The notes under the pieces were generated by a model, which did no database searches, was not told the origin of the DNA, and saw only the letters and a program-made list of their open reading frames with translations. A program made the translations under genes and the position numbers. From the sequence record LC739536.1: 64,000 bases of DNA; one strand, given 5' to 3'. Positions 6,898 through 64,000 of the stretch are shown piece after piece. The DNA comes from Escherichia phage phiWec187. How positions within the stretch are numbered: the stretch's first letter is position 1; every line of letters starts with the position of its first letter.

Positions 6898-6928
6898 ATA
6901 TGAAAAGTAGTATAAAAGGAGATCCACT

Positions 6929-7408: not shown

Positions 7409-7411
7409 CAA

Positions 7412-7437
7412 AAAGGGCAGAAATGCCCTTTATTTTT
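7412..7437 (+). terminator. rho-independent terminator after tube gene
   Basis: stem agggca / tgccct then tatttttaaa. Confidence 0.55.
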
Positions 7438-7451
7438 AAAGAGAGGAAATA

Positions 7452-46965: not shown

Positions 46966-46966
46966 A

Positions 46967-47792: not shown

Positions 47793-47992
47793 TATACACC
47801 AGCCTTAAGATCAATTAAAGCCAAAGTTGTTTCAGAGTGTGTTTGCTCGTCTACAGGTGCAGTCATATGATAATACAAAAAATCTTCGGCATCATACCAA
47901 TCTGATTCTTGACCTTGTTTCCAACCATCAATGAAAGCATCTTCCATAATGGTTTGCAATTCTTCACGAGTTAAGTGAATATCTTTACTCAT
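47792..47992 (-). CDS. hypothetical small protein
   Basis: 66 aa ORF. Confidence 0.25.
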   Translation of the reverse strand: MSKDIHLTREELQTIMEDAFIDGWKQGQESDWYDAEDFLYYHMTAPVDEQTHSETTLALIDLKAGV

Positions 47993-48225
47993 TACACATT
48001 CTCCTCTTTTACCAAGTCCATCGTTGAACTATCAAAACCATCTTTAGAAGAATAGGTATAGACAGAACGTAGTTCTCGCAGGACAGTGAATACATTAGGA
48101 TCATCTAACCAAGCATCCTGGAGGAGAACATAACGATCTTCATTGTCATACTGAACAGCAATCATAGAACCAGACAGTTTGTAAATTTTAATATTCATAA
48201 TATATTTCTCCTTAAAGTAGACCAC
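47992..48225 (-). CDS. hypothetical small protein
   Basis: 77 aa ORF. Confidence 0.25.
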   Translation of the reverse strand: MVYFKEKYIMNIKIYKLSGSMIAVQYDNEDRYVLLQDAWLDDPNVFTVLRELRSVYTYSSKDGFDSSTMDLVKEENV

Positions 48226-49315
48226 GTTTAACAGTTTGAATCATACCATCTTCAAGAGATTGCACTTCTTGAATGTAATCAATACGCGCAGCACGGGCTT
48301 CAGTGTTGATTCGGTTAGTTTCTTCCAACATTTTAACTAAGTTTTCTTGATCGCGACGTAATGTTTCAATATCCAATACTTGACGATTAGCAAGTTGTGT
48401 AGCTTCAATTTGGTTTTGTGCAGCCAGATCACTACCCATTGCAATAGCAGCATTAAATTCATTCAGCACATTGTTCTGTGTATCGGCTGCTTTCTTCTGG
48501 CGTAGACTTTCAATATACATAGAAAAGTTTGCAGAGTAAGCAGGGATAACATTATTCACAATATTACGGGCTGATCGCATCAAACTTGCAGATACTTTCT
48601 GCATACTTTGTACACGTGGCCCCATCTGAACACACAGTAAACGCAAGGCTTTCAGGTCTGCAATACGAATTTCAAGCAGATCCATAGTATCACGAGTACG
48701 TTGACGCTCTTCTACTTCATTTTCAGGTAGTGTATTAAGGCGAACTTCTTCTTTTTCATAAGTAGCTGTTAGAAGCTCTATATCCCTGTTTAAGCTAAGA
48801 GCATATTTTGCAATAGCCTCTTCTAAACGTTGCAGATATCGTAAAGAATCTTCTTCTTTTTTCAAGTCTGTTTGTAGTGTCTTTACCAAACCTTCAATAC
48901 GATTATTGATGGTGTCAAATTCACCAAACAAATCTTCTTTCATACCTAATACTTTCTTAACCAGTTTACCTAAGCCTTTAGATTGTTTAATAGAGTTAGG
49001 ATCAAGTTGCTTTGCTTGCTTAATAAGTGCAGTTAAACGTTCACTCATTTCATCCCCCTGAGATGAACGCTGGTGTTTAAGCACTTCAGCATTAAGGTTA
49101 CGAAGAGTAAGTCCTGCATCAGCACCAACTTGTTCAATCTCTTCACGAGACATTGGAGGCAGCATTTGTACAGGTCGTGCAACAGCAGGGGCATATACAG
49201 GGCTTGCATCCATAGCACTTGGAGCAAACAAAGACTTACTTTTTTCTGTTGTTGCCGTGAATACACTCATTTCAGACGGTTTGCTTTTTACGGCACTGAT
49301 AAAAGGACTGGACAT
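48212..49315 (-). CDS. TelA-like toxic anion resistance family protein
   Basis: 367 aa, largely coiled-coil, with size and architecture of TelA/KlaA; context with TerD and TerC; no single diagnostic motif. Confidence 0.45.
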   Translation of the reverse strand: MSSPFISAVKSKPSEMSVFTATTEKSKSLFAPSAMDASPVYAPAVARPVQMLPPMSREEIEQVGADAGLTLRNLNAEVLKHQRSSQGDEMSERLTALIKQAKQLDPNSIKQSKGLGKLVKKVLGMKEDLFGEFDTINNRIEGLVKTLQTDLKKEEDSLRYLQRLEEAIAKYALSLNRDIELLTATYEKEEVRLNTLPENEVEERQRTRDTMDLLEIRIADLKALRLLCVQMGPRVQSMQKVSASLMRSARNIVNNVIPAYSANFSMYIESLRQKKAADTQNNVLNEFNAAIAMGSDLAAQNQIEATQLANRQVLDIETLRRDQENLVKMLEETNRINTEARAARIDYIQEVQSLEDGMIQTVKRGLL

Positions 49316-49383
49316 TCAATTTCCTCCGTATTCTTTAGTAGATGGTGATACCTCTGTACCACCATCATAACACAAATTAAGTA

Positions 49384-50235
49384 TTAAACAAACATATCTA
49401 AATAATTTGTAGTAATAAATGCTCCATCTGCTTCCAGATTAACATAACCAGTAGCATTAGTGGTTAAGAAATCCAGATCGAAGGACTCTTTAACACCCCG
49501 TACCTCAACACGAGAGATATCGAATACAGGTAGTGTAACAGCCTCTTCGTGCAATACCGTACCTTTGTAGGTTGCCTTAATGATAAACTTGATATTACCC
49601 GTTCCAGCATCATACAAAACACTTTCAAACCCTTTGAGAGTATACTTATCACCAGAAGTGAAGTGCAAAGTTGCTTTGTTTACAGTACGTTTTTTACGAG
49701 GAGTTCCTTTCACACGTTTATGATCACTACGTTTTTTGTATTTAGGAATGAATACAAACGATACATTGTGAAGAAAGGTATCAACATCAAGGATTTTAAT
49801 ATCCTCTGTTGCAGCAAATTTTGAAGTTGTTGCATCAAAATGCTTTTCCCGGCGATCATACATAAAGATATCAAACCGATCTTCTAAATCAAACAAATTA
49901 TGTATTTTAATTTCAGAATGCTTGCGCATTGCAGCAACCTTGAACTCTTCAAAACGTGGGTGTTCTACAAGTTCTTCAAGTTTTACACCAAAGACAGTAT
50001 ATTGCTTCGGAGTTTTTTCTGGTGTTGGCATTACAGAAGCATAATCACCGATTGCGCTCTTAAAGCAAAATTGTTCTTGACCTGTATTTTTACCAACGAA
50101 TTTACAGTATTCGTCATCGTGCATACTTTCCTGGGTAGTACCAACAAACTCAAAACCATCTTTATTCTTCTCAAGAATTTCTTGATTAAAGATCCAACCT
50201 TCCAGGCGATATACTTTACCAACTTCTAGTTTCAT
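49384..50235 (-). CDS. hypothetical protein
   Basis: 283 aa ORF between TelA-like and lipoprotein genes. Confidence 0.3.
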   Translation of the reverse strand: MKLEVGKVYRLEGWIFNQEILEKNKDGFEFVGTTQESMHDDEYCKFVGKNTGQEQFCFKSAIGDYASVMPTPEKTPKQYTVFGVKLEELVEHPRFEEFKVAAMRKHSEIKIHNLFDLEDRFDIFMYDRREKHFDATTSKFAATEDIKILDVDTFLHNVSFVFIPKYKKRSDHKRVKGTPRKKRTVNKATLHFTSGDKYTLKGFESVLYDAGTGNIKFIIKATYKGTVLHEEAVTLPVFDISRVEVRGVKESFDLDFLTTNATGYVNLEADGAFITTNYLDMFV

Positions 50236-50270
50236 CTGTTTCTCCTTCTTATTTAATCTGTATTAAATTA

Positions 50271-50861
50271 TTAACGACGACGTGAGCTACTAAAACTACG
50301 TTTCGACGAAGAATAACTTTTCGAAGACTTACTATAAGAGCTAACAGGACTTGAGTAAGACTTACCAGCAGAGTAATCACTATTCACTTTTGTTGTTGAT
50401 GGGCGTGAATACGTTTGTACACTTTGCTGCTTAATTGTGTTTTGTTTAGTGGTTGTATATGTATTTCCTTGTTTATCATAAAAACTATGCTTTTGTGTTG
50501 TATATGCTTTACTATTAGTTGTAGGAGCAGCGTTGTTATTGATAATTGTTGTATTGCTACCGCCATCTCTATAACCACCACCGCCACTATTACCACTCAA
50601 CATATGACCAAGAAGCATACCTGTAGCGAACTCACCTACGCCAGAAGAACCACTGCCGCCTCCTTGAACAACAACTGTTGAAGGTTGTGCAGGTGCTGCT
50701 TGAACAACTTGAGGTGCAGGCTGATTTACATATTGTTCATCTACCATCTGATTTGGTGTTTGTTGGTAACGTTGGTTTTGTACATTTTCAGAATCATCAC
50801 AACCTACCAGCAATGCACTACCTAATACAACTGCAACAATAAAAGATTTAATGTTTTTCAT
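50271..50861 (-). CDS. lipoprotein with Gly-rich and Ser/Tyr-rich low-complexity regions; start re-assigned to ATG at 50861
   Basis: signal peptide with lipobox LLVGC; GAGAGG-type RBS upstream of the second ATG; C-terminal SYSSPVSSYSKSSKSYSSSKRSFSSSRRR. Confidence 0.45.
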   Translation of the reverse strand: MKNIKSFIVAVVLGSALLVGCDDSENVQNQRYQQTPNQMVDEQYVNQPAPQVVQAAPAQPSTVVVQGGGSGSSGVGEFATGMLLGHMLSGNSGGGGYRDGGSNTTIINNNAAPTTNSKAYTTQKHSFYDKQGNTYTTTKQNTIKQQSVQTYSRPSTTKVNSDYSAGKSYSSPVSSYSKSSKSYSSSKRSFSSSRRR

Positions 50862-51093
50862 TTGTAACCCTCTCATTTAAAGTCTCAACACAATTTTTAA
50901 AATCTCTAGAGAAACAATACATCTGTTCTCCGTTCCTGTTGATAGTAATTGTATGGTTATCAATATATGTTGTCAAGATAAAAATCAAACAAAACAACCC
51001 TAGAGCAAAACAAATATTTTCAAACAGAATCCAAAGAACACGTAAAACCACCATCAGATCACCTCAATAAAGCCCCCGAAGGGGCTTAATGAA

Positions 51094-52071
51094 TTAAGCA
51101 ACAGCCTGGTCTTCTTTTTCAGGGAAGATTAAACTTGCAATAACACCCAGCCCAAGAGTACCTAACACAATATACATACTGATCGTCGGATCAATGTGTG
51201 CTGGTAGGAAACTCACTTTTGCGTGCAGAGTTTCTGCAAACGGATGATACATCAGTTTTACACCCACAAATACCAGGACTACGATAACTGCTTTCTCCAG
51301 ATGAACCAAATACTTCAGTGCAACACTAAGAACAAAGAACAGAGCACGTAAACCTAAGATAGCACAGAGCATCGAAGAGAACACCAGCAGAGGTTCTTGT
51401 GTCACTGCAATCACTGCTGGAACAGAGTCTACTGCAAAGATTACGTCAACCATTTCCATTACAAACACACAAACCAGAGCCGGAGTTGCTACACGAACAC
51501 CATTTTTGATTGTGAAGAACTTCTCACCATCCATCTGATCAGATACAGGGAACAGCTTACGAACAATGCGAGTAGCCCAGTGTTTAGAGTAATCAACTTC
51601 TGCATCATTATCTCCAGCGAATACCATTTTAGCCGCACAGAAAAGGATGACCGCACCGAAGAAGATATTAACATACCAGCCCAAACTCAACAAGTAAGTG
51701 CCTACTGCTACAAACACACCTCGGAAGACAATCGCACCTGCAATACCCCAAAGTAGAATCTTGTGCTGCAAGTGTGTGCTTTTAATACCAAAACTTGCGA
51801 ATACTGCCACAAATACTACTAAGTTATCTACAGAAAGAGATTTCTCCAACACATACCCACTTAAGAACAAGCTCGCAAAATCAGCACCGTGTTGGAAGTA
51901 TACAAAACCATAGTAGGCTAATGATACCCCAATCCAGAAAATTGACCAGCCAATTGCAGATTTAAATGAAATTTCTTTGTTTTCTCTGTGTCCAAAGAAA
52001 TCAATACAAATCGACAAGACTAAAATACCCACTAAAACAACCACATCAATAATTGGGAAACCCAGTTGCAT
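51094..52071 (-). CDS. terC: TerC-family integral membrane protein
   Basis: 325 aa polytopic membrane protein; YVLEKSLSVDNLVVFVAVF matches the conserved TerC block. Confidence 0.75.
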   Translation of the reverse strand: MQLGFPIIDVVVLVGILVLSICIDFFGHRENKEISFKSAIGWSIFWIGVSLAYYGFVYFQHGADFASLFLSGYVLEKSLSVDNLVVFVAVFASFGIKSTHLQHKILLWGIAGAIVFRGVFVAVGTYLLSLGWYVNIFFGAVILFCAAKMVFAGDNDAEVDYSKHWATRIVRKLFPVSDQMDGEKFFTIKNGVRVATPALVCVFVMEMVDVIFAVDSVPAVIAVTQEPLLVFSSMLCAILGLRALFFVLSVALKYLVHLEKAVIVVLVFVGVKLMYHPFAETLHAKVSFLPAHIDPTISMYIVLGTLGLGVIASLIFPEKEDQAVA

Positions 52072-52148
52072 TCTTTTCTCCTCTTTAATGCGGAGGACAA
52101 TCCTCCGCTCTATGTCTTATACTATAAACTGTTTTTAAAGAAAGTCAA

Positions 52149-52397
52149 CTAGTTCAGTTCTGTAATTTTAAGTTTATCTTCTTTGTTAATGATAGGGAAA
52201 GCTACAGCATCACCTACATCATCAATAAAGCAAATAGCAAGACCACCTTCCACTTTGCTAACCTGACCATTAAAGGCATGATACGGGGCAGGAACTTCAT
52301 CTCCATCTTCAATGAGAATAGCCTCGTAAACCTTGCCGATAGTACAATCACGGGTGTTTATAAATTTTTCAAGCACTTCAACATTTACTTTACGCAT
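52149..52397 (-). CDS. hypothetical small protein
   Basis: 82 aa ORF. Confidence 0.25.
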   Translation of the reverse strand: MRKVNVEVLEKFINTRDCTIGKVYEAILIEDGDEVPAPYHAFNGQVSKVEGGLAICFIDDVGDAVAFPIINKEDKLKITELN

Positions 52398-52411
52398 ATA
52401 AAGATCCTCTC

Positions 52412-52618
52412 TTATTTGTTAGATTGAAAGATACCACGGAGTACCGCAAGAATGAACGTCACACAGACTACACTCCAAAACGTTACAGGAACATGATGCC
52501 AGTCTAAGCCGATAATGTCAATCATATAATTGTATGCTAAAAGCAGTAGCCAACTAGGGATTAACACAATCAAGAACACAACAATAAAACAACCTAATAC
52601 TGCTAAAACACCTGCCAT
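52412..52618 (-). CDS. small membrane protein
   Basis: 68 aa, two hydrophobic helices. Confidence 0.3.
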   Translation of the reverse strand: MAGVLAVLGCFIVVFLIVLIPSWLLLLAYNYMIDIIGLDWHHVPVTFWSVVCVTFILAVLRGIFQSNK

Positions 52619-52627
52619 ACTTTCTCC

Positions 52628-53344
52628 TTATTTCAGTTTGTAAACAATTACATTTAAACCTTTGTTTACTAGAGTTTCTTCGATCATAAGTTTTACAATA
52701 TTCCAAGAACCTCCAGCCAAACCACAACCAAGCATTGGTAAACCTACAATTTTACCGCCTGAAGATACAACATCGTCTCCCATACTATCTAGCGCATTGT
52801 AGATAGCTTCATAATTCAGGTCACGCTTACCTTCCTCACGACGACTATAACCATATTGTCCATATAAATTATAAATTGTCAAATTGTTTTCTGTATATTT
52901 GGTAAACGTACCTAATTTTTTATAATCACCACGTTTAGTGGCACAATCTGCTTTAAACGCACCAGGCCACTTGCTTTTAATTTTTGGTGCAATACCACTA
53001 CCCATAGTGCAAAAACAGTTACAGCAGTGTGCTATAGCGTCTATATCGCCTCTCTCGGCTGCTGCTAAAAGATCACCGTATACCTCAATGATACCTGCTG
53101 GATAACTTGTTACAATTTCATCTTCCCAGTACATTTTCTCTACACCACCGATCAGTGCAAAGTTTTGTGTAATGCGATCATCAATATAGTTAAGCCCTGA
53201 AACATACACAGCGTATTCATCCTGTGCTGTAATACCTTGCACACGAATTCTTAAGACACCATCTTTATCTGTTGCTACACGCCCAAAATCTTTTTCTGTA
53301 ATATTGGTGATAGGATCTCCGAAAGTCATTACTTTATTAGACAT
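52628..53344 (-). CDS. macro-domain protein (ADP-ribose binding/processing); start re-assigned to ATG at 53344
   Basis: IAHCCNCFCTMGSGIAPKI and C-terminal LGCGLAGG resemble macro-domain blocks; ORF track start lies inside the upstream gene. Confidence 0.5.
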   Translation of the reverse strand: MSNKVMTFGDPITNITEKDFGRVATDKDGVLRIRVQGITAQDEYAVYVSGLNYIDDRITQNFALIGGVEKMYWEDEIVTSYPAGIIEVYGDLLAAAERGDIDAIAHCCNCFCTMGSGIAPKIKSKWPGAFKADCATKRGDYKKLGTFTKYTENNLTIYNLYGQYGYSRREEGKRDLNYEAIYNALDSMGDDVVSSGGKIVGLPMLGCGLAGGSWNIVKLMIEETLVNKGLNVIVYKLK

Positions 53345-54194
53345 AATAATCCCCTTTAACATTAGATTTGTTGATAATGTTGCTTTCAAAAAATTGACGT
53401 AGGAAATCAAAGTTCTCTTTGTATTTTTCAATGTTATTGTAACCTTCTGCAAGGCAACCAAAGAACAGTTGTTCTACATAATACAAAGGAAGTTGTGAAA
53501 GTGCAATTTTAAAATCAACTTCGCTTTGACTCATTAGATACTTAATAGGACGAACCAAACATTTAGCATCAGTTTCTTGCTTAATCATTTTAATAAAAGC
53601 TGCCAGATTATTGATATAGTTGAAGTTAAGTGCAGCTTCGGTATTGGCTTCTGTACCTTCATACTTTGCAAAGTACAGGAAAAACGTATCGTTTTCAACA
53701 CCTTCTTTGTCTAAAATTTCAATAAGTTTTTCTTCGTGTGTTCCTGTAATATTAACATCATCAATGAAAATCAGAGTTTTATTACCCCAGAAATCACGAT
53801 TGATAGAGAAAGTGTCACCATCGATCAAAGCCTTACGATCTTCTTTGCTAAGAAATCCATAATCATTGATATAACTCACTTTACGATGAACGATATCCCA
53901 CTCCACTGCTTTACCTCCTTTGATAGAGATTAGGTAGTTGAGGTGATCTACAAAATGCTCAGATAACACTGTAGCTGCATTTTTCACATAATTATATGGA
54001 GATGGAATAACAACAAAACTTTCATTTACTAGTCGTTCTTCATATTTAGAAAAGAAACTTTCAGCTAGAATGCGTCCCATTCTTTTTGCTGCCTGGTTAC
54101 TGCCAAACTTTAGTTTGGAATAATCTGCAATGTTAAATTTTGCTTCCTTCAGGTTAGTAAAAGTATTAGCAAAATGTTGAATTTGATTACGCAT
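53337..54194 (-). CDS. phosphoribosyltransferase-domain protein (type I PRTase fold)
   Basis: 285 aa; TLIFIDDVNITGTHEE matches the PRPP-binding motif (hydrophobic x4, DD, xxTG) of type I PRTases. Confidence 0.55.
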   Translation of the reverse strand: MRNQIQHFANTFTNLKEAKFNIADYSKLKFGSNQAAKRMGRILAESFFSKYEERLVNESFVVIPSPYNYVKNAATVLSEHFVDHLNYLISIKGGKAVEWDIVHRKVSYINDYGFLSKEDRKALIDGDTFSINRDFWGNKTLIFIDDVNITGTHEEKLIEILDKEGVENDTFFLYFAKYEGTEANTEAALNFNYINNLAAFIKMIKQETDAKCLVRPIKYLMSQSEVDFKIALSQLPLYYVEQLFFGCLAEGYNNIEKYKENFDFLRQFFESNIINKSNVKGDYYV

Positions 54195-54843
54195 TAATAA
54201 GTTCCTCTTTTTTAAGTTTAGCCAACAAGTCTTCTGGATTAATAATATGACAGAACTTCATCCCTATGTCAACAGCTTTTCCATCATAAATCAAACTATC
54301 TCCAACGTGTAAAATCTCCTCTGGTGCGAGATCAAACGTTACCATTTCATCAAAAGAGAGTTTAAAAAACCTAGGATCTGGTTTACACAAGCAAAACTCA
54401 TCAGAAAAATGCATAAAGTCAAATGGTAATTTTGTTAAGCCAGAATATACAGCTAAGAAACTACCTGGTACAAAATTAGTATTGCTCTTAATACTCAAAG
54501 AATAGGTTGAACTTAGCTCTTCCAACTTCTTGCAAAGTTCAGGGTTCAATATTGGAGGATGTTTTATAAACATTGCTAAACAGTCTCTTTTTAACCCATC
54601 CACTTTATCAAGATCAATGTTCAAACGAGTAGAAAGTGTTTCCCAAGCATTCCTAGACGTTCCACAAATGCCTTTTTCTGCTTTTAAATCCAGGAGAGTT
54701 TTTACCTCTTTATATACGGTAGCTGCTTCTGCCTCAGAACAAGAGGCATACTCGGCAATAACCTTGTTGCGTTCTTCTGCATACAAAGGATTAGCAGTAA
54801 TAAGAGTATTCCATACATCAAAAGAAATATGCTTAACAGTCAT
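54187..54843 (-). CDS. HAD-superfamily hydrolase/phosphatase; start re-assigned to ATG at 54843
   Basis: motif I FDVWNTL (DxYGT-type variant) and motif IV VGDSLIYDG; GGAGG RBS 7 nt upstream of ATG 54843. Confidence 0.55.
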   Translation of the reverse strand: MTVKHISFDVWNTLITANPLYAEERNKVIAEYASCSEAEAATVYKEVKTLLDLKAEKGICGTSRNAWETLSTRLNIDLDKVDGLKRDCLAMFIKHPPILNPELCKKLEELSSTYSLSIKSNTNFVPGSFLAVYSGLTKLPFDFMHFSDEFCLCKPDPRFFKLSFDEMVTFDLAPEEILHVGDSLIYDGKAVDIGMKFCHIINPEDLLAKLKKEELINA

Positions 54844-55012
54844 TTTTAATCCTCCGTCCAAAAGAATATCATCTGCTTAATTTTATTGATCTCTTGATGT
54901 AGTAACTTTCCAGCATGTGATTGATCTTTAATATTGACAGCAAGAATTTCAAGCTCCGTTAGTTTTTCCTGTATAGCTTTATATTCATCATCTGTAAGCA
55001 TTTTCTTCCCCT

Positions 55013-55216
55013 TTAGAATGGTAATCTTTGTATGTCACTTATCCCCACACCAAGAAGTCTAGCAATATCCTTATCTAAAAGCAACTCTTTTTGTTCTAAA
55101 ATGTTAATCAGATCCCCTAATACTTCTTTAATGTCACGATCATTTTTAACAACGTGACCACCTGCTGTATCAACTTTATCTTTAAAAACAAAGTAATGAT
55201 CCATAATACCCTCCAT
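55013..55216 (-). CDS. hypothetical small protein
   Basis: 67 aa ORF. Confidence 0.25.
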   Translation of the reverse strand: MEGIMDHYFVFKDKVDTAGGHVVKNDRDIKEVLGDLINILEQKELLLDKDIARLLGVGISDIQRLPF

Positions 55217-55250
55217 ATAAATAAAGGAGGCTTTCGCCTCCTTTTATCAC

Positions 55251-56411
55251 TTAGTAAGAACGACCACCAAACACATACTCTGTGTAGTTTTTACGTTCTT
55301 TGTTTTTAATAACAACTTCAATGTTGTTGCCTTTATCATCGGTGAACACAAAGTGATAACCGTCACCACCCATTGTACGGATGTGTTTTTCATCATACGT
55401 CAGCAAGATACGGTCTACACCCCAGTAGTAGTCACCTTCTTCGTCTTTATCTTCTACGGTAACGACTCCTTCCATTTCAGGAAGATGCTCTTCTCCTGAC
55501 TTATGATCTACAGCTACAACATAACGATTACCGCTAAACAAACCTTGTGCTGTCATACCGTCAATATCTGTATCTGACGAAACATCTCCTGTACGATCTA
55601 CACCGTTAACTTTCAGAAGTTTAACTTCTTTTGCAGCATAGCGGTGTTCAGTAATACTGATACCCATTAATGCAAGTGCATCAGAGAATTTGTCATTAGG
55701 GTAACGGTTAAGTTCTTCTACTAATGACTGAACAATATCAAAGTTCAAGTCCACGGAAAGATTATAAAGCGTTTCAAAATCTGGTAAAAAGGCTTTGTTC
55801 TCCAGATTTTTAGCCAGATAGTCATCCATAGTAGCTTTAGGTAGTTTCTTATAGCTAAAGCTGTAGAAAATACGGCTAGGACGATTACGCAAAAATTCTG
55901 ATACATAACCATCGTTTTTAGTCAATACAAACAGCTTGTCGTAGCCACCTACACCATCCAGCAGGGTAAGCAAGCCATCCTGTGCATCTTTTTCAGCATA
56001 CAGTTTATCAAATTCATCGATCATAATCATCACAGGTTGTGTGATTTTAGACATAAAATTGATAAAGCCTTCGCCATTAAAAGCACTACCGATAGAAATA
56101 GTAGGAATACCCATTTCACGAAGAGCAGAAGACAGCATTTTAGCTTGCAAAGTTTTACCGCTACCCTTCGTACCCTCAAGGAGAACACCTGTGTTTTTAC
56201 CTTTGCGGCTAAGGAACGTCTTGATAATACGTTCTGATTTATCATCAGTATCACCGTATGTTACTGAAGGGACTTCCATATCGTTTTTAGGATACAGGAA
56301 GAACTCACCACTTTGAGTAACACCTACACCAAAAGTTCCTGCTGGAATTTCTTCAATATCTGTACCAGACTTCTGACGCAGGAAGATTTGATTGCCGAAT
56401 ACTGTAAACAT
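55251..56411 (-). CDS. AAA-type ATPase of unknown function
   Basis: 386 aa; Walker A GTKGSGKT and Walker B VMIMIDEFD; GAGGAG RBS. Confidence 0.55.
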   Translation of the reverse strand: MFTVFGNQIFLRQKSGTDIEEIPAGTFGVGVTQSGEFFLYPKNDMEVPSVTYGDTDDKSERIIKTFLSRKGKNTGVLLEGTKGSGKTLQAKMLSSALREMGIPTISIGSAFNGEGFINFMSKITQPVMIMIDEFDKLYAEKDAQDGLLTLLDGVGGYDKLFVLTKNDGYVSEFLRNRPSRIFYSFSYKKLPKATMDDYLAKNLENKAFLPDFETLYNLSVDLNFDIVQSLVEELNRYPNDKFSDALALMGISITEHRYAAKEVKLLKVNGVDRTGDVSSDTDIDGMTAQGLFSGNRYVVAVDHKSGEEHLPEMEGVVTVEDKDEEGDYYWGVDRILLTYDEKHIRTMGGDGYHFVFTDDKGNNIEVVIKNKERKNYTEYVFGGRSY

Positions 56412-56431: not shown

Positions 56432-56902
56432 TTAGTCAGATTCCCAAATGTTGTCTTTCTTAATCCACATTCGTTGATTATCTGAACCTCTATAACGTTT
56501 CGTTGTTGGTTGATTCATATCATACTTACCATCTATCACTATGTCAACCAGTTTTTTAATTTTTTCTGGAATTTCCTCAAAAAGATATCCTGTATATAAG
56601 ACAATATCTTTTTTGTTTCCAAAACAATCTCTTACCTTCTCAAGAACATACTCTACAGTGTCAATGTTCTCTTTGTCAAGAGGTTCACCACCTAAAACTG
56701 TTAATCCTTTAATGAAAGGTCGAGATAAATCTTTCAAGATAAGATCTAATGTTTCAGTAGTGAACTCTTGTCCGTGGTTATACGACCAGGCTTTCTGGTT
56801 AAAGCAGCCACGGCAACCGTGGCTACAACCGCTCACCCACAAAGAGCATCTTACACCGTCACCGTTGAGCATGTCAACAGGTTCATATCCGGCGTAATTC
56901 AA
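56432..56902 (-). CDS. nrdG: anaerobic ribonucleotide reductase activating protein (radical SAM)
   Basis: 156 aa; CSHGCRGC radical-SAM cluster motif; start overlaps the nrdD stop. Confidence 0.8.
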   Translation of the reverse strand: MNYAGYEPVDMLNGDGVRCSLWVSGCSHGCRGCFNQKAWSYNHGQEFTTETLDLILKDLSRPFIKGLTVLGGEPLDKENIDTVEYVLEKVRDCFGNKKDIVLYTGYLFEEIPEKIKKLVDIVIDGKYDMNQPTTKRYRGSDNQRMWIKKDNIWESD

Positions 56903-57840
56903 AAATGTTTCTCCCTTTCTAGTACCTCTTGCATTTTACCTTTATTATAGGGGCGAGAGTTAGGGGCAGAAAGGTATCCTGACACTCTTCTGATCACAGA
57001 TATGGATTCTTCTTCATGATTGCCACAACTTGGACACTCGAAGCCTTTAGCCGTTGCTTTAAATTCACCATGAAAACCACATTTGAAACACTGATCTACA
57101 GGTTGGTTCACACCAAAATAAGGAATTTTGTTGTAGGCATAATCTACAAGAGTTTCCAGTGCTTGCAAGTTATTTTTAAGGTTTGGTGTTTCTACATAAC
57201 CTATGTTCCCACCATTACTGATTTGTGCAAAACCTTCCTCATAATCCCACTTTTGGAACGGGGTAGTGTGCATCCATACAGGTTGATGGAAAGAGTTTGT
57301 CAAGTAGTCACGATCAATAGAACCAGGATAGCGATCATTTAATGCTTTGGCAAATTTATAGCACAAGGATTCTGCTGGTGTTCCATACAAACTAAAAGCT
57401 AAACCAGAACGTTCTTTAAATGTGCCACAGATATCCTTCATATATTGAAGGATGTTTTTACCCATTGCTTTTGTATTGGTGTTACCTGGGTATAAAATCT
57501 CCATAGCTTCTGCTAAACCTACATAACCGATACTAATAGAGGCATAACCACCTTCGAATAGTTTACCAATCTCTTCATTAGCTTCTAGTCGAGCTAAAGC
57601 CCCTTCCATAAACAATGTAGGGTTTTGAGATGCTTTGGTATGTCTAATACGGTTAACACGTAGCATATGTGCCTTATACGCCATCTCCATATGTTGTTCC
57701 AACAGTTCAGTAAATAAGATGCCCTTTTCACGGGACTCTGCTGCAATGATAGGTAAGTTTAAAGAAACCACGCCTAAGTTGAAACGACCATCATATTTTT
57801 CACCTTGCTCTGTTGCGTAGTATGACAAGAAACTTCTACA
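56899..57840 (-). CDS. nrdD: anaerobic ribonucleoside-triphosphate reductase, exon 2
   Basis: CRSFLSYY...DGRFNLGVVSLNLP aligns with my recollection of E. coli NrdD; C-terminal CPSCG zinc site and RVSGYL glycyl-radical motif; proposed exon start at the Cys codon 57838-57840. Confidence 0.75.
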   Translation of the reverse strand, partial: CRSFLSYYATEQGEKYDGRFNLGVVSLNLPIIAAESREKGILFTELLEQHMEMAYKAHMLRVNRIRHTKASQNPTLFMEGALARLEANEEIGKLFEGGYASISIGYVGLAEAMEILYPGNTNTKAMGKNILQYMKDICGTFKERSGLAFSLYGTPAESLCYKFAKALNDRYPGSIDRDYLTNSFHQPVWMHTTPFQKWDYEEGFAQISNGGNIGYVETPNLKNNLQALETLVDYAYNKIPYFGVNQPVDQCFKCGFHGEFKATAKGFECPSCGNHEEESISVIRRVSGYLSAPNSRPYNKGKMQEVLEREKHF

Positions 57841-58609
57841 CATTATGTTCAAAGTGGCTCGCAAGGCCACTCCCGCACCATTACGTGCTGCTGCATGTCA
57901 CCATGCAGATCAGACTATATCTTCATGCTTAAAGCATGTCTACCATTTGGGGTGTCATAGGCTTACACCCTACGCTGCTACATTCATCACAGCTAGTCGT
58001 TAGGCATTTCGTAACAGAACTCATAATCATAATTATTTGGTGCTCCTCGCTTTAAGATTGCAGATATTCTTTTTCTGTCCAACCCTAAAGCGTCAGCACA
58101 ACATCTCAGACTTTTAAAGTAAAAAACTTCACCGGTAGCCTTATGAGTAGCTTTTACACTGTGACACCTTGTGTAGAAAGCATAACAGTTATTATCGTAA
58201 CCCTCTTGCGTGTTGTCTGGACAAGATCCCCACTCAAGATTGTATACACTATTGTCTTTCCTATTGTCACCTTTATGCTTCACATAAGGTAAATTGTCTG
58301 GATTGGGTAAAAACGCTTCAGCTACAAGTCTGTGCACCCGAAAGCAAACAGTTTTCTTGTTTTTACGTATTCTGACAAGTTGGTATCCTGTGTTTATTTC
58401 TTCCCACGAGCGAAGGATTCTTTCATCCTTATACCTGGTACAATAAACATTTCCAAGCTCGTCAATTTCATACCCTTCAAAATCACGAATTTGTTTTCTC
58501 ATATCAGTACCCCCTTCTTCTGTGTTGGGAGTTCTGTTACGTTTAGCACGGGATTGTCTCGTTGAGAGTTCCCCCGTTTAGGCAGATTTTACATGAGCAG
58601 TTATAGTTT
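57841..58609 (-). mobile_element. group-I-intron-like intervening sequence in nrdD carrying an HNH homing endonuclease ORF
   Basis: nrdD frame broken between ...VTSMG and CRSFL...; exon 1 ends in U (GGT) and the intervening sequence ends in G, as in group I introns; no RBS or ATG precedes exon 2. Confidence 0.55.
57993..58502 (-). CDS. HNH homing endonuclease (intron-encoded)
   Basis: 169 aa; ELGNVYC...GYQLVRIR...VHRLVAEAFLPNP...NLEW resembles the HNH_3/NUMOD pattern of phage homing endonucleases. Confidence 0.7.
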   Translation of the reverse strand: MRKQIRDFEGYEIDELGNVYCTRYKDERILRSWEEINTGYQLVRIRKNKKTVCFRVHRLVAEAFLPNPDNLPYVKHKGDNRKDNSVYNLEWGSCPDNTQEGYDNNCYAFYTRCHSVKATHKATGEVFYFKSLRCCADALGLDRKRISAILKRGAPNNYDYEFCYEMPND

Positions 58610-59467
58610 ACCCATGCTTGTGACGCGACCATCTGAAGATCCTGTAACTTCTTTGTTTAAAGGTACAGAGATAAAATCAGGATAAATGCGTTCAGCACAA
58701 CACTCCATTGCCAGTTGCTTCAAATCATAGTTTGGATCGCCAGCTTTCATGTTAACACCATCTTCCAAGAAGAAGATAACTTTAGGAAACACAGGAGTTA
58801 CCCTATCTTTTCCTAATCCTTGTTTGTGCACCATTAGGTAGTTTTTAGTGATCATTCTACCAAAAGCAGAGGTATCCAAGCCTAAACTAATTGTTATAAA
58901 AGGTGACTGACCATTTACACTCATTAGGGTGTTCACCTGGTAGATTAAAGTTTGCATTGCATCATAAACCTGTTTATCTACCATACGCATAGCAATATCA
59001 TAATCGCCAACATCGGCGTATATTTTATTAAAACTTGCTTTAACGTATTGACTAAGCCCAGTATCAATATGTGCACAAGTTTGTCCACCATATTGGCTAG
59101 AAGCTACTGCTTGAATAATTTGAGTTAGGACAGTAGTTGCTACACCGATAGATTTTGGTTTTTCAATATGTGCATTACCAATACGGAAACCGTTCTCAAG
59201 CATATCTTGGTAATTTACCAGGCAACAATTAGTTAGAGGTGAGAGTAAATAATCTAAATCGTGAATGTGACCATACCCACTTTTATGCCATTCTGCCAGA
59301 TCTTCCGGTAAAATATGGGTCATTGCCATGTGCTTGCTTAGGATACCTGCTAGTAAGTCTCGGTGAGTATTAACAATCATTGCAGGTTTGTTTGCATTTT
59401 CACGAGTAAATTCTTCGGATGTTTGTTCGAGGAATCCGATTACATCCTCATATAGTTTTTGGGTCAT
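58610..59467 (-). CDS. nrdD: anaerobic ribonucleoside-triphosphate reductase, exon 1
   Basis: N-terminal 286 aa of NrdD; track ORF runs two codons further to a stop inside the proposed intron. Confidence 0.75.
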
Positions 59468-59486: not shown

Positions 59487-59509
59487 AAAGCCAGCTTAAT
59501 GCTGGCTTT
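59487..59509 (-). terminator. terminator hairpin upstream of nrdD
   Basis: stem aaagccagc / gctggcttt with ttaat loop; minus-strand ttttattttcc follows. Confidence 0.45.
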
Positions 59510-59556: not shown

Positions 59557-60507
59557 TTAGTCAAGGTTTTTGGTAATACGTGTACAACCGTCAGAAGTCA
59601 AACCGTCAACTTGAGTTTCCCAAGTACCATGAATATTTCGGAACAATGTTGTTACACCTTTTGGTTCATTAATAATGATTGCCATAACAAGTTTAGGATC
59701 GATAACAGACATAATCTTTTCCTCAATACCCTCTGTAATAACATTATTGCGCACAATATTAATTGCATCTTCTTGTACAGTAAGAACACTTACGTTCTTA
59801 AGAGTATATACCTGCTGTGTAGTGTAAATAATACGAACATAACTTACAGAACGAGTAGGCACAGGTTTACGCGGTCGGCGAAAACGTGGTTTTGGTGAAG
59901 ATTCAGTCTTACTTTCATTTTTTGAATAATACTCCTCAAACAGTTTAGTAAATGTTTTTACATCAACTACAAACCGATCTTTCCTATATGGAGAATTCTT
60001 ATGTGCACCATTAATACCACTGTTTTCATCGAAGAAAGTAATGTTTTCTTCAGTTGAATACATTAGATAATGCTCTGCATTTTTCCAATGTGGTTGTGGA
60101 CAACGAGGATTACAAACGGAAAGCAAATAATTAATATTTTCTTCCGTGGCCTCAGTATCCAGGAAACACGTATTATGCACAGTCAGTTGTACTTTTTCAG
60201 CCATATCCTTTTCTTTATCCTCATTGGTAAGATATTCAATACGAAGAATTTCCAGAAAATTTTCAGGTGTTACTTCCATAAATGTATATTCAGGATGAAG
60301 TTCCATATATTCAAATCCACAACCATCTAATTGCTGTAGAAAGTTAGGGTAGAAGAACAAATCATTAACACTGTGAATCAGATCATTGATTTCTGCTTCA
60401 GTTGTGTAACCAAAACTTTTGTGAATTGCCTCGTTAAGAATATGCAGGATACCCATCTCTTCTGCTGCTTTTTTAACTTCCAGTTTATTAGCGTAAAATG
60501 CAATCAT
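59557..60507 (-). CDS. hypothetical protein
   Basis: 316 aa ORF. Confidence 0.3.
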   Translation of the reverse strand: MIAFYANKLEVKKAAEEMGILHILNEAIHKSFGYTTEAEINDLIHSVNDLFFYPNFLQQLDGCGFEYMELHPEYTFMEVTPENFLEILRIEYLTNEDKEKDMAEKVQLTVHNTCFLDTEATEENINYLLSVCNPRCPQPHWKNAEHYLMYSTEENITFFDENSGINGAHKNSPYRKDRFVVDVKTFTKLFEEYYSKNESKTESSPKPRFRRPRKPVPTRSVSYVRIIYTTQQVYTLKNVSVLTVQEDAINIVRNNVITEGIEEKIMSVIDPKLVMAIIINEPKGVTTLFRNIHGTWETQVDGLTSDGCTRITKNLD

Positions 60508-60524: not shown

Positions 60525-60959
60525 TTAGTTTAAAATTTCTTTTGCAATGGTAGAAGCAAGTTTTCCATCATATTGATTCGGATACTCTGCTTTAAGGTGT
60601 TTCATCATATCTGGCATTTTCTTGCCTGTCAAGGCAAATTCTTCGGCAATAGCTCGAAGATCATCTTCAGATAGCATTTCTGGTAAATATTTCTCCAGAG
60701 TGGTGATATCACGCATAGCTCTCTCACATTTGCTAAGGGAAGCATTAACTTTCTTAAGCGAGTCTAGTTCCTCTTTAGCGTGTGCAATACCAATCTTAAC
60801 AATGTTAATCATAATATCGTCTTCTGATTTGTTTAGATTTGCCTTTTGAGTACGAGCAAGGTCAAACTCACCAATAATATTAGTTAACAAAGCAAAAGCA
60901 CCCTTATCGGTTGTACGTGCTAAGATACGATCTGCTTTCATTTGTGTCACAATAGACAT
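60525..60959 (-). CDS. GatB/YqeY-domain-like protein
   Basis: 144 aa helical protein; size and composition resemble YqeY-type domains; weak call. Confidence 0.35.
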   Translation of the reverse strand: MSIVTQMKADRILARTTDKGAFALLTNIIGEFDLARTQKANLNKSEDDIMINIVKIGIAHAKEELDSLKKVNASLSKCERAMRDITTLEKYLPEMLSEDDLRAIAEEFALTGKKMPDMMKHLKAEYPNQYDGKLASTIAKEILN

Positions 60960-60971
60960 TCTATTCTCCTC

Positions 60972-61544
60972 TTATTTGCTAATGCTTTGAGTCTTGTTTA
61001 TAACACGGTTTATTGCCAGTGAAGCCCTAGGCTCCGCAATACCTGTTGCATAGATATAAGGATGACCTCTTGGAGACTCCCTCATACCGAATGAACCTAA
61101 TTCTAAACCATATTCATCCTCTACGTCAACCCCAATATTAGTGGGTACTAAATATGTTTTAACTCCATAATAAGTAGAGAAGAAACAGCGCATAGCGTTA
61201 GCATACTCTTCAATTGTAGCATCAGGGTAGAACTCAATCAACTCCAATTTCAAGAAAATATTAAAATGGGTATCATCTAAATTTTCTTCTGTACGGTAAC
61301 ATGGCGTTAGTGCCATATACGGATTACCTGCTGCAAATTCAAAACCATCCTTCTCCATTTGCAGGAAAGATTGTTCTGCACTAGCTACATAGTATTTACC
61401 GTTAGGATGCCCTAATGGGCGATCCTCTTTATTTTCTGGTAGTGTGTACGCTAGTATATCAGCATCCACGAGATATGGAACTTCTAACATTTGTGCAAAT
61501 CGACCATAGTAATCAATAGCTTGAGCTATTACTGCAACATTCAT
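60972..61544 (-). CDS. class II aminoacyl-tRNA synthetase-like catalytic core protein (minimal)
   Basis: 190 aa; PCYRTEENLDDTHFNIFLKLELIEF resembles class II motif 2 (FRNE...H..EFT..E); GSFGMRE a possible motif 3; weak call. Confidence 0.3.
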   Translation of the reverse strand: MNVAVIAQAIDYYGRFAQMLEVPYLVDADILAYTLPENKEDRPLGHPNGKYYVASAEQSFLQMEKDGFEFAAGNPYMALTPCYRTEENLDDTHFNIFLKLELIEFYPDATIEEYANAMRCFFSTYYGVKTYLVPTNIGVDVEDEYGLELGSFGMRESPRGHPYIYATGIAEPRASLAINRVINKTQSISK

Positions 61545-61792
61545 GATCGACCTCCATTGCGGAATGCACGTTTAGTAATGTTTGACATAGTGATCAAATC
61601 TTGAAGCGTCATATCAGGAAAATGCTGTTCAAGAACACCTTCAACAGCGCCTACAATATCTGATAACTCAATAAGTTGCATCAGCTTGCAGTCTTGATCA
61701 ATAGCATCTTGAAGTTCATAAAGCTCTTCTTGAATCTTAGCAACAGAACCATATTCCTCTTTGCTAATCTCCTTCAAATGATACCCTGCCAC
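61541..61792 (-). CDS. MazG-like nucleotide pyrophosphohydrolase-like small protein
   Basis: 83 aa all-helical; EELYELQDAI ... ELSDIVGAVEGVLEQH resembles the MazG/HisE Glu-rich metal-binding pattern; weak call. Confidence 0.3.
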   Translation of the reverse strand: MAGYHLKEISKEEYGSVAKIQEELYELQDAIDQDCKLMQLIELSDIVGAVEGVLEQHFPDMTLQDLITMSNITKRAFRNGGRS

Positions 61793-61802
61793 TTTAACCC
61801 CC

Positions 61803-64000
61803 TTAGTTTACCAGTTTATTTATGTCTGGTAAAAGATTTATTTCACCTAAGAAATCACCTTCACCTTCCTCTAGCCAACTCTCATATGCTTGTGCATGAT
61901 TATAGTTACCATCAAAAGAATCTGCAACAAATTTTTCTACAGTTTTTCGAGATGTGTCAGCGCCAAATACACCAAGTTTAATACCATTGATAGGTAAAGT
62001 GGTGCTTGTGGGTACTTTCTCTGTTGCAACACGGTTGATATCTATAATCTCCTGTACGGTTGTGTTCCATTGTAAGCATTTAACACAACGGGTGTGCGCT
62101 ACATACAGTAGGTTTCGCTCTGCCTCTTCTAGTCCTACCCATTCACCAGTCTTTTTATCATAATTGGAAGGAAAATCATTAGCAACAATAACCTGATCCC
62201 ACTCCAAACCTTTAGATTTGTGTGCTGTAGTCAATGTGACTTTTGCTGTAGGAGAATTTCTATGCGTTCTAAGTGTATGTGCTATAGTGTTTGCCTTACC
62301 AGAAACTACAATGTTTAACAAACGTTTAGCATCTGGATCAGCCTCTGCACACTCAACAAATTCATCCCAGTCTGCATAAGGTAATACAGTTTCATGTTTT
62401 ACTTTCTCAATATCTCCTCTCCGAAGAGCATTAACACTATCTACCATAGAGATAAAATCCCTGGTATCTACGTTAATAATAATTTCTTCCCCGTCTGCAA
62501 TACGATCCATTGCCTCCATAAGCAAGGTTAAATTCTTGCGAAAGATGATAGTGTAAGGTTTTGTATAGTCTACAACATCTGATTTGTAGCTACCTACTAC
62601 AGTATCAAAGCCTTTACCAACCAAAGGATGACGCAAAGGTTCTTTATCGCTTAAAATCATATTGGCAATGTTTGCCACTTTGGGGCCAAAACGGAAGCAA
62701 GCAGTTAATGGAAGTTCTGCCCCATACTTAGCTGTTTCAATCATCATATTAGAGCTACCTCTAAATTGATAAATGCAGTTGTGGCTAAGAATTTCATTGC
62801 CAAAGAAGTTAGCAGTATCCTCTACTTCAATATCATAATAGATACCCTCACTATCTACAATGTCCACAATCTCTTCTGCCGTTACAGTATCACCATCTTT
62901 TACCAACACAGACATGCCTTTAAACAAACCCGCTGCCGGAATTAAGTTATATTTGGCACTGTTCACAGAGGACATGCATTCTTTTAAAGATGCAAACGGA
63001 ACTATTTCAAGGATCTTTTGTGCAAAACTCAATGCTTCACGATAAGAATTGAAATATTTACGTACACGGTAACGACCTTCCAATTTAGCAGCACTTACGC
63101 TTACACCTGCTTTAATCAGTGAAGAATAGATCGGCATTTCACTTTCTGTCCACTCAAAACTAACTTGTGTTCCTTTACAACCTTGTGCTCGCAAAGTCAC
63201 TGTTAGCATTTTTCTTTCATCTACTGCACAATTGATGCTGTGCCAGTGTGGATAAGCAAAATGATAATCTTTATCCTCTAAAAGTTTAAAACCATTTTGT
63301 CCGAATTGTTCAAAGATGTTATTGATCTTTTCTTGATTAATGCCGCGTGAACTTGCTTCAAATACACAAGTAGGCATGCCATATTGTAAACTGTAAGCCA
63401 TTTCTTTTTCCATAGCAGCTTCACGGTTTTCAACAATATCCAACACCCATAATTTCTGTGCTTTTTCAGAACGTGTACGTTGCCCCAGTTTAGAAAAACC
63501 TTCTTTATCATCGAATTTGTTAGTGATCCCTACTCGGAAACCTAAATCTTTCCTCCACATTAGGTATACCACCATCTGATCATCTTTCAGAACATAGGAT
63601 GAAGCCCAAATACGATGGTTATGTGTCATATCTAAAGTTTTACCTGTGGCAGTAATAATATTCCTACCTTTTGTACGTGTAGATAAAGTCTTATTTGTTA
63701 CTTTTCTAAATGTAATTTTACCATTAGAATAAGACTCTACCTTATCACCGATTTGTAGGTCTTTCATTGTAACCTGACCATTCTCGGTATTAAGTACCGT
63801 GTTTTCCGACACACATTGGAATTCATCGCCCACTACCACAATTTGTTTTGCAGATTTAGCATTTCGCAGAATAGACAAGAATGCAGGGTTAACATCCTGG
63901 AATTCATCACCAAAAATAATGTCATAACCAAGATCAGCACCTGATAATTCAAACAATTTTACATAGGTGTCATGCGTCATCAAAGTATCTGTGTTAGGAT
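61803..64000 (-). CDS. UvrD/Rep-like superfamily 1 helicase interrupted by an intein (5' end outside the window)
   Basis: motif II GDEFQD; motif III VGDEFQ split by the intein and resuming CIYQFRGSS; frame open past the TTG at 63983 to the window edge. Confidence 0.75.
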   Translation of the reverse strand, partial: PNTDTLMTHDTYVKLFELSGADLGYDIIFGDEFQDVNPAFLSILRNAKSAKQIVVVGDEFQCVSENTVLNTENGQVTMKDLQIGDKVESYSNGKITFRKVTNKTLSTRTKGRNIITATGKTLDMTHNHRIWASSYVLKDDQMVVYLMWRKDLGFRVGITNKFDDKEGFSKLGQRTRSEKAQKLWVLDIVENREAAMEKEMAYSLQYGMPTCVFEASSRGINQEKINNIFEQFGQNGFKLLEDKDYHFAYPHWHSINCAVDERKMLTVTLRAQGCKGTQVSFEWTESEMPIYSSLIKAGVSVSAAKLEGRYRVRKYFNSYREALSFAQKILEIVPFASLKECMSSVNSAKYNLIPAAGLFKGMSVLVKDGDTVTAEEIVDIVDSEGIYYDIEVEDTANFFGNEILSHNCIYQFRGSSNMMIETAKYGAELPLTACFRFGPKVANIANMILSDKEPLRHPLVGKGFDTVVGSYKSDVVDYTKPYTIIFRKNLTLLMEAMDRIADGEEIIINVDTRDFISMVDSVNALRRGDIEKVKHETVLPYADWDEFVECAEADPDAKRLLNIVVSGKANTIAHTLRTHRNSPTAKVTLTTAHKSKGLEWDQVIVANDFPSNYDKKTGEWVGLEEAERNLLYVAHTRCVKCLQWNTTVQEIIDINRVATEKVPTSTTLPINGIKLGVFGADTSRKTVEKFVADSFDGNYNHAQAYESWLEEGEGDFLGEINLLPDINKLVN
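62778..63815 (-). mobile_element. intein (346 aa) inserted in helicase motif III
   Basis: starts CVSENTVL, ends FFGNEILSHN followed by Cys+1; canonical terminal His-Asn; boundary codons checked on the nucleotide sequence. Confidence 0.7.

Follow-up and report, generated by a model that had tools for sequence, protein, structure and literature searches.

The 64,000-nucleotide stretch of Escherichia phage phiWec187 analysed here (sequence record LC739536.1; the window, in what follows, is that whole stretch) comes from a phi92-like E. coli myophage (Justusliebigvirus, Stephanstirmvirinae), and its interval 60525-61792 holds, on the minus strand, exactly three open reading frames (ORFs), of 144, 190 and 83 amino acids (aa). 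Each has a strong match to a PHROG family (E = 2e-36, to phrog_1460, 3e-71 and 2e-43, respectively), and on that ground the three are taken to be real genes. They are homologues of phi92 gp195 (144 aa), gp196 (190 aa) and gp197 (83 aa), whose names we use for them, and the region is 98.5% identical to phage PaulScherrer and 98.0% identical to phi92. An earlier note, drawn up from the letters of the sequence, had described three adjacent small genes here and had likened their products to a GatB/YqeY domain, a stand-alone class II aminoacyl-tRNA synthetase (aaRS) core and a MazG-type pyrophosphohydrolase. Profile and structure searches return the same three, a YqeY protein, a class II core and a MazG/PRA-PH-like fold, and unrelated folds did not turn up.

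The three are co-transcribed accessory genes, read in the order gp197, gp196, gp195 (Table 1). The gp197 gene has AAGGGGG as its Shine-Dalgarno sequence, and its GTG start lies 10 nt past the stop codon of an upstream helicase gene, whose ORF ends at 61803. The YqeY gene and, beyond it, a 316-aa gene homologous to gp194 lie downstream, each with a Shine-Dalgarno sequence of its own, that of the 316-aa gene being GAAGGAG, 15 nt past the YqeY stop.

The SerRS-like core and its MazG-like partner

At the centre of the locus stand two of these genes, the MazG-like and the seryl-tRNA synthetase (SerRS)-like one, which make up an obligate, nearly virus-only module. We surveyed 70 loci that bear the core, drawn from IMG/VR (64 loci), from individual look-ups, from phage PaulScherrer (locus L001) and from the window itself, and in 67 of them a MazG-like gene lies within the 8-kb flank on either side of the core. 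Most have it immediately upstream, with stop and start codons abutting or overlapping; a minority have it up to about 1.4 kb away, four (L049, L056, L063, L064) have it immediately downstream, and in three the two genes are fused. Fusions also account for 10 of the best 150 cluster representatives; they are about 260-274 aa long, with the core N-terminal, the MazG-like part C-terminal and essentially no linker between them. The core family as a whole comprises 1,601 representatives at 50% clustering (1,077 with E < 1e-30), nearly all of 170-200 aa, and the core is present in 272 of 50,697 phage genomes, its carriers being phi92-like, rV5/phAPEC8-like, Acinetobacter T4-like, Caulobacter phiCbK-like, Microcystis, Pectobacterium and Erwinia phages together with Brevundimonas and Vibrio jumbo phages. 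When 185,579 species genomes of bacteria and archaea were scanned, no more than 15 loci came up; none was in a closed genome, and the contigs of 13 bore titles that mark them as metagenome-assembled genomes. On these counts a cellular origin or prophage reservoir was rejected.

The larger subunit, gp196, is a SerRS catalytic domain reduced to its core, with class II motifs 1-3 kept. Pfam returns nothing for it above threshold (the best match being tRNA-synt_2d, E = 0.14), NCBIfam returns no match, and none of 57 homologues has a precomputed Pfam assignment. The class II motifs are visible in an alignment of 37 homologues, and the AlphaFold2 model built from that alignment (pLDDT 95.7) has an antiparallel beta-sheet core with flanking helices and carries motifs 1, 2 and 3 in order. 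When the family profile was searched against the PDB, A. aeolicus SerRS came first (E = 4e-5), AspRS and PylRS followed, AsnRS was also returned, and neither HisRS nor HisZ was among the matches. A profile of 251 non-identical members, whose identity reaches down to about 28%, aligns end to end with residues 168-411 of E. coli SerRS (hhalign probability 93.8%, E = 1.7e-7). This alignment, the motifs and the model together uphold the reading of the gene as a stand-alone class II core.

Across the same 251 members, S55, E57, R84, F97, K99, E101, D140, E148, G150, S151 and T167 are invariant, R173 and C82 are each conserved in 250, and the residue two after the motif-2 arginine is acidic (E/D86) in 239. 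R84 and R173, the motif-2 and motif-3 arginines, are the 'arginine tweezers' of class II enzymes (PMC5919687). The remaining correspondences with E. coli SerRS are set out in Table 2; what gp196 shares with bacterial-type SerRS (class IIa) in particular is the TxE, FxKxE and ExxS motifs and a threonine or serine six residues ahead of the motif-3 arginine. We take the SerRS motifs that align with these residues to be those that contact ATP, Mg2+ and serine: in the T. thermophilus SerRS structures the TxE, FxKxE glutamate and motif-3 threonine positions presumably bind the amino and hydroxyl groups of serine, and the ExxS pair presumably binds Mg2+. Judged by this alignment, gp196 quite probably activates serine.

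At the same time, gp196 departs from SerRS in ways that bear directly on its acceptor. SerRS has about 430 aa against the 190 of gp196, and possesses a coiled-coil tRNA arm, a longer motif-2 loop and a C-terminal tail, none of which gp196 has. [quoted passage not shown] SerRS binds tRNASer by means of its helical arm and motif-2 loop (PMC9427863), so that with the one gone and the other shortened the elements of tRNASer recognition are lost. Neither SerRS nor HisRS is a fitting label for gp196. It further differs from SerRS in having an obligate MazG-like partner and in being nearly confined to viruses.

The smaller subunit, gp197, is probably a MazG/HisE-type all-alpha nucleoside triphosphate (NTP) pyrophosphohydrolase, as several weak signals converge to suggest. 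AlphaFold2 predicts three helices (pLDDT 90). Among 61 diverse members Y4, H5, I9, K19, E22, E23, E26, E42, D45, F77 and R82 are invariant and position 29 is always acidic (D/E, 61 of 61), and it is by these invariant acidic residues, with D/E29, that gp197 carries the signature of the all-alpha NTP pyrophosphohydrolases; in the predicted structure the residues of the acidic motif sit on helices 17-32 and 36-57. Against Pfam PRA-PH, gp197 scores 15.0 bits (E = 0.034; gathering score 21.3), with the acidic-motif region aligned, and of 42 members 34 match PRA-PH (best E = 2.7e-4) and 5 match MazG, no other family recurring. The top profile match in the PDB is a Sulfolobus MazG (1vmg, E = 0.025), followed by the PRA-PH 2a7w, and that of Foldseek is the PRA-PH 1yvw (probability 0.57, E = 3), followed by MazG and HisIE. 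Each of these matches is weak, and all of them agree with the MazG-type assignment made earlier. Compared with MazG and HisE proper, gp197 is only 83 aa long, has three helices and stays below the Pfam thresholds; it has Y4, H5, K19, F77 and R82 as extra invariant residues, and in nearly all loci an aaRS-like core is coupled or fused to it; we found no description of such a pairing for MazG or HisE. The gp197 gene is encoded just upstream of the core, as is the arm within SerRS; the idea that gp197 is a detached SerRS N-terminal tRNA-binding arm was rejected on its invariant acidic cluster, its isoelectric point (pI) of 4.6 and its position C-terminal to the core in the fusions.

The third protein, gp195, is a YqeY protein, as had been proposed. 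It exceeds the gathering score of Pfam YqeY (PF09424; 30.4 bits against 27, covering residues 38-143) and matches B. subtilis YqeY (1ng6, E = 8.2e-5) and 8xjg (E = 0.008) in the PDB. Next to B. subtilis YqeY (1NG6), the C-terminal domain of GatB and the C-terminal YqeY domain of D. radiodurans GlnRS, it is a phage-encoded stand-alone copy. In its 144 aa, of which the YqeY match spans 38-143, there is no GatB catalytic (cradle) domain, and the database label 'tRNA amidotransferase' is therefore unjustified. YqeY-type domains resemble the tRNA-charging domains of GatB and GlnRS, and YqeY itself is uncharacterised (PMC13374519). YqeY homologues occur in 117 phage genomes, most of which (Vibrio, Sinorhizobium) do not overlap with most module-bearing phages (rV5-like, Acinetobacter, Caulobacter, Microcystis); phages that have both are confined to Justusliebigvirus, a small number of Klebsiella relatives and a single, distant metagenomic phage (L005). 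Given so restricted an overlap, YqeY is a lineage-specific neighbour that stands outside the conserved unit, and the three genes as a single conserved unit were rejected. Of the grouping first proposed, the obligate link between the MazG-like and aaRS-like genes thus stands, and the inclusion of YqeY holds for particular lineages only. In L005, a 125-kb contig, positions 4743-7688 carry in succession YqeY, a calcineurin-like phosphoesterase, the MazG-like gene, the core, a Macro gene and an R2K ATP-grasp gene, an island that resembles a cassette for the healing or modification of RNA ends.

Table 1. Genes, motifs and expression signals at the locus (window positions; residue numbers are those of the respective protein)
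Feature	Position	Strand	Basis or comparison
MazG/HisE(PRA-PH)-like all-alpha protein, 83 aa, gp197 homologue, GTG start	61541..61792	-	
Minimal class II aaRS catalytic core, SerRS-derived, 190 aa, gp196 homologue	60972..61544	-	
YqeY (GatB C-terminal-type) protein, 144 aa, gp195 homologue	60525..60959	-	AGGAG upstream at 60966-60970
316-aa protein, gp194 homologue, last gene of the transcription unit	59557..60507	-	
gp197: codons of EELYELQDA...ELSD, the acidic motif EExxE(x2)D...ExxD, putatively metal-binding (E22, E23, E26, D29, E42, D45)	61658..61729	-	
gp196: motif 1 region YYGRFAQMLEVPYLV; P23	61467..61511	-	Aligns with E. coli SerRS HGYSENYVPYLV; P23 in 96% of members
gp196: YVASAEQSF, S-A-E for the T-A-E (TxE) motif of SerRS; S55, E57	61365..61391	-	PTAEV in A. 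aeolicus and E. coli SerRS
gp196: motif 2 ALTPCYRTEENLDDTHFNIFLKLE; R84, E86, H93, F97, K99, E101	61242..61313	-	TPCFRSE...QFDKVE of SerRS
gp196: LELGSFG, E-x-x-S motif (E148, S151) for SerRS E-I-S-S	61086..61106	-	hhalign
gp196: motif 3 YATGIAEPRASLA; T167, R173	61014..61052	-	Paired with S391/R397 (NGSGLAVGR) of E. coli SerRS
ATGA stop/start overlap from MazG-like to aaRS-like gene (translational coupling)	61541..61544	-	Sequence
GGAGG, Shine-Dalgarno of aaRS-like gene, within 3' end of MazG-like gene	61551..61555	-	Sequence
TAAGGGGG, where the stop codon of the upstream UvrD/Rep helicase overlaps the Shine-Dalgarno of the MazG-like gene	61798..61805	-	Sequence
Strong intrinsic-terminator-like hairpin AAAGCCAGC-ATTAA-GCTGGCTTT, then TATTTT; closes the unit	59487..59509	-	Sequence

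Table 2. Residues of gp196 and their counterparts in E. coli SerRS
gp196	E. coli SerRS	Motif
VPYLV (P23)	VPYLV (P196)	Motif 1
S55/E57	T237/E239	TxE, amino-acid site
T80-P-C-x-R84-x-E86	T264-P-C-F-R268-S-E270	Motif 2
F97/K99/E101	F287/K289/E291	FxKxE
D140	D342	
E148/S151	E355/S358	ExxS
T167...R173	S391...R397	Motif 3

Candidate activities of the pair

Overall, on what the sequences suggest, we lean towards the view that gp196 and gp197 are the two subunits of a seryl-adenylate-forming ligase whose acceptor would be non-canonical and linked to tRNA or to nucleotides. Each fold is normally a dimer, so the complex that the two proteins would form is probably an alpha2-beta2 (2:2) one. The core would convert serine and ATP to seryl-adenylate and hand the serine to an acceptor that is not selected by canonical tRNASer recognition, while the MazG-like subunit would bind, and probably cleave at the alpha-beta bond, a ligand of the nucleoside-triphosphate type that may be the acceptor, its precursor or the product. 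YqeY, where present, could serve as an optional tRNA-binding helper in trans.

As to the acceptor, a tRNA or RNA end, modification of the GluQRS kind included, seems to us the single likeliest class, with somewhat less than an even chance of being right; it is singled out by the genomic context, that is by tRNA arrays, RlaP, YqeY, PTH2 and Macro. Of 40 lineages, taken as 50% identity clusters, 5 have the module in a phage tRNA array or no more than 1 kb from one and 11 have a tRNA gene within 8 kb of it, and in Vibrio phage 2.275.O two tRNA-Ser genes lie 5.2 kb upstream of it. An RlaP nucleotidyltransferase is found within 6 kb of the module in 5 lineages, all in other phages; RlaP, which has been linked to the repair of tRNAs, adds nucleoside monophosphates at the 3' end of RNA (PMC12776372; PMC7824862). 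The window has no tRNA genes, and its 21 flanking ORFs scanned with Pfam contained no nucleotidyltransferase, nor did a profile search find RlaP, so the nucleotidyltransferase that the earlier note had placed nearby is missing from the parts of the window scanned. The tRNA- or nucleotide-directed accessory function hinted at there does fit the wider context of tRNA arrays, RlaP and the presence of YqeY in two distant lineages; its phrase 'translation factor' is too strong. Serine could be attached to a base or ribose of a tRNA, much as GluQRS/YadB, a truncated GluRS paralogue, glutamylates queuosine in tRNAAsp. Unlike gp196, GluQRS is a cellular enzyme of class I (Rossmann) without a MazG-like partner, and the two are non-homologous; we know of no serylated tRNA nucleoside in module-bearing phages. 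A free nucleotide, giving a seryl-nucleotide or Ap4N, comes next among acceptors and is in itself rather unlikely; the remaining probability falls to a protein, or to no transfer at all.

Several observations weigh against this proposal. The assignment of serine depends on alignment with SerRS residues whose roles we have presumed, and the MazG-like signals, though they agree, are each below significance. The two subunits have acidic family median pIs (5.1 and 5.5), and neither has an obvious RNA-binding appendage, a few members with small Zn-ribbon-like tails apart, and for these two reasons direct binding of tRNA is disfavoured. The enrichment near tRNA arrays is modest (a rough binomial P of about 0.03, against a rough null that assumes a 4% chance per lineage), and YqeY is within reach of the module in two lineages only. 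The genes flanking the module are heterogeneous: the 150 examined include DUF4326 (3), DSP phosphatases (3), thymidylate synthase (2), R2K ATP-grasp (2) and PTH2 (2), with RNA ligase, 3'-5' exoribonuclease and NrdD besides. Finally, the accessible literature holds no study of the module, its function included.

The only known substrates of the partner's family are molecules of the nucleoside-triphosphate type, and this, together with the want of any tRNA-binding module, speaks for a pair directed at nucleotides throughout, in which seryl-AMP would react with a second NTP to give Ap4A or Ap4N, or the core would esterify the ribose of a free adenine nucleotide, and the MazG-like subunit would trim or degrade the triphosphate product, leaving a small-molecule signal or a host-manipulating metabolite. 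The SerRS of T. thermophilus reportedly makes Ap4A, and genes of nucleotide metabolism are frequent neighbours of the module (NrdD, thymidylate synthase; in the window a phosphoribosyltransferase (PRTase), HAD and Macro). We nevertheless consider this unlikely, in that the scheme is purely inferential, a synthase whose product its own partner hydrolyses would work in vain without regulation, and the recurrent placement in tRNA arrays would be left unexplained. The GenBank label 'putative seryl-tRNA synthetase' agrees with another reading, namely a genuine minimal SerRS in two or three pieces, whose core would charge the 3' end of a host or phage tRNASer while YqeY or another protein bound the tRNA in trans. 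Every catalytic and serine-site residue of SerRS is indeed conserved, several phages have the module in tRNA arrays that include tRNA-Ser, and YqeY, whose domains resemble tRNA-charging domains (PMC13374519), adjoins the module both here and in L005. Such an enzyme is still improbable: the helical arm, a critical element of tRNASer recognition, is missing and the motif-2 loop is shorter, most module-bearing phages (rV5-like, Acinetobacter, Caulobacter and Microcystis, by tblastn counts) have no YqeY, the obligate MazG-like partner would be left without a role, and the hosts have a SerRS of their own, the phage proteins moreover being acidic.

Two further readings liken the core to particular stand-alone class II paralogues, a class to which it belongs. 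Amino acid:[carrier protein] ligases of the Bll0957/Atu2573 type, which descend from methanogen-type SerRS and attach the amino acid to a phosphopantetheinyl carrier protein, are SerRS-like cores of about 300 aa without a tRNA-binding domain, and EpmA/PoxA acts on EF-P; by analogy gp196 might be a protein- or carrier-directed ligase and gp197 its acceptor or adaptor, not an enzyme. This we hold to be very improbable. The phage partner, unlike the carriers of those ligases, has no invariant carrier serine and is MazG/HisE-like: its only carrier-like serine, S44, sits mid-helix and is replaced in 25% of members (Ser 46, Ala 12, Cys 3 among the 61), its invariant residues are those of the MazG-type acidic cluster, and fold searches give MazG/PRA-PH and no acyl-carrier proteins. 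On the same grounds gp197 was rejected as an acyl or peptidyl carrier protein. The least probable reading of all is a pair like HisZ and HisE, in which a non-catalytic class II paralogue would regulate a PRTase beside a phosphoribosyl-ATP-type pyrophosphohydrolase, the two feeding the PRTase-HAD-Macro metabolite genes. HisZ, AsnA and EpmA/PoxA (275-330 aa) descend from HisRS, AsnRS/AspRS and LysRS, respectively, whereas the phage core derives, by its sequence, from bacterial-type SerRS, is about 100 residues shorter and has its MazG/HisE-like obligate partner. The profile matches SerRS, AspRS and PylRS and not HisRS or HisZ, SerRS-specific motifs are invariant where those of HisRS are not evident, fully conserved adenylation residues are unexpected in a purely regulatory subunit, no PRTase recurs beside the module in other lineages, and the top Pfam families of the 150 flanking genes include no HisG-type neighbour. 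The pairing was accordingly judged unlikely.

Returning to the two-subunit seryl-adenylate-forming ligase, its boldest form would have a natural, active 'near-urzyme' core and a MazG/HisE-like subunit constitute an undescribed two-component aminoacyl ligase of large phages, a proposal we regard as tentative and more doubtful than otherwise. Such an enzyme might attach serine to a nucleotide or at some site in a tRNA, for instance in tRNA repair, protection or re-tagging; alternatively it might make an aminoacyl-nucleotide or dinucleotide signal amid the conflict with host defences that target tRNAs or nucleotides. To our knowledge a core of the gp196 type (about 175-195 aa) would be the smallest natural class II synthetase-type enzyme. 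Stand-alone class II cores have repeatedly proved to be new enzymes, as with AsnA, HisZ, EpmA and the amino acid:[carrier protein] ligases; the core described here is much smaller than any of these, and its adenylation and serine sites are strictly conserved. If it is active, it offers a natural test of the lower size limit of class II synthetases and bears on the urzyme question, and it would stand for a new accessory activity, widespread in phages and probably connected with the biology of tRNAs or nucleotides.

Existing labels and other features of the phages

The fold calls themselves are not new, since GenBank and PHROG annotators already apply labels such as 'putative seryl-tRNA synthetase', 'histidyl tRNA synthetase', 'tRNA amidotransferase/YqeY-like' and, in a single record, 'putative phosphoribosyl-ATP pyrophosphatase'. 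We found neither the module as a unit nor its fusions or distribution described in the accessible literature, and a survey of jumbo phages (PMC7824862) does not mention the module. Some of the labels in use mislead and should be replaced, 'histidyl tRNA synthetase' and 'tRNA amidotransferase' among them; phrog_1460 and GenBank also call the YqeY-only protein 'aspartyl/glutamyl-tRNA synthetase', and phrog_15930 calls the neighbouring 316-aa protein 'ribonucleotide reductase'. That protein has no match in Pfam, NCBIfam or the PDB, and a large-database search gave near-identical homologues and no distant ones; a local iterative hidden Markov model of it matched a 510-aa ORF directly 3' of the aaRS-like gene at locus L008.

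Four members of the core family without a MazG fusion (P0097, at L019 8001-8708, P0103, P0150 and P0096) have C-terminal tails of 30-65 aa with a Zn-ribbon-like CxxC...CxxC pattern, which could be nucleic-acid-binding add-ons; two of the four, P0097 and P0103, are basic (pI 9.9 and 8.0). Two module-bearing megaphage contigs, one of them of 578 kb with two copies, carry amber-suppressor-type tRNAs with the anticodon CTA, which ARAGORN calls tRNA-Pyl (L043 1980-2053; L044 967-1123), and these suggest possible stop-codon reassignment in the two megaphages.

Elsewhere in the window, the gene upstream of the module (61803-64000, minus strand; its ORF exceeds the window end) encodes a UvrD/Rep helicase with an intein, according to the annotation of PaulScherrer, which lists helicase and intein as separate mature peptides. 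Further downstream (56899-59467, minus strand) the class III anaerobic ribonucleotide reductase gene, nrdD, is in two pieces, an N-terminal one (58601-59467) and a C-terminal one (56899-57870), between which lies an HNH_3/NUMOD (I-HmuI-like) homing-endonuclease ORF (57993-58502). Because nrdD of PaulScherrer is one uninterrupted coding sequence, an intron or a free-standing homing-endonuclease insertion is probable here. Beyond nrdD, a Ter-type set occupies 46171-56411 on the minus strand, with vWA-TerF-like (46171-46965), TelA (48212-49315), TerC (51094-52071), Macro (52628-53461), ComF-like PRTase_3 (53337-54194), HAD (54187-54861) and AAA ATPase (55251-56411) genes. We take this set to resemble the 'Ter-linked nucleoside-like metabolite' system proposed by Anantharaman, Iyer and Aravind; the Macro gene that directly adjoins the module in L005 is related to the one in the window.

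Four GenBank records (MG065639, MG065645, MG065656 and MG065689) entered as 'Campylobacter phage' with C. jejuni as host are about 98% identical, over the region studied here, to E. coli phi92-like phages, and their host label looks doubtful. The minus strand of the window also carries an N6/N4 DNA methylase gene (31291-32022), a glycosyltransferase-like gene (40319-41263) and a gene (42236-42922) with a weak, sub-threshold Pfam match to the TET-associated glycosyltransferases (TAGT; 23.3 against 27.5 bits), which together hint at DNA base hypermodification.

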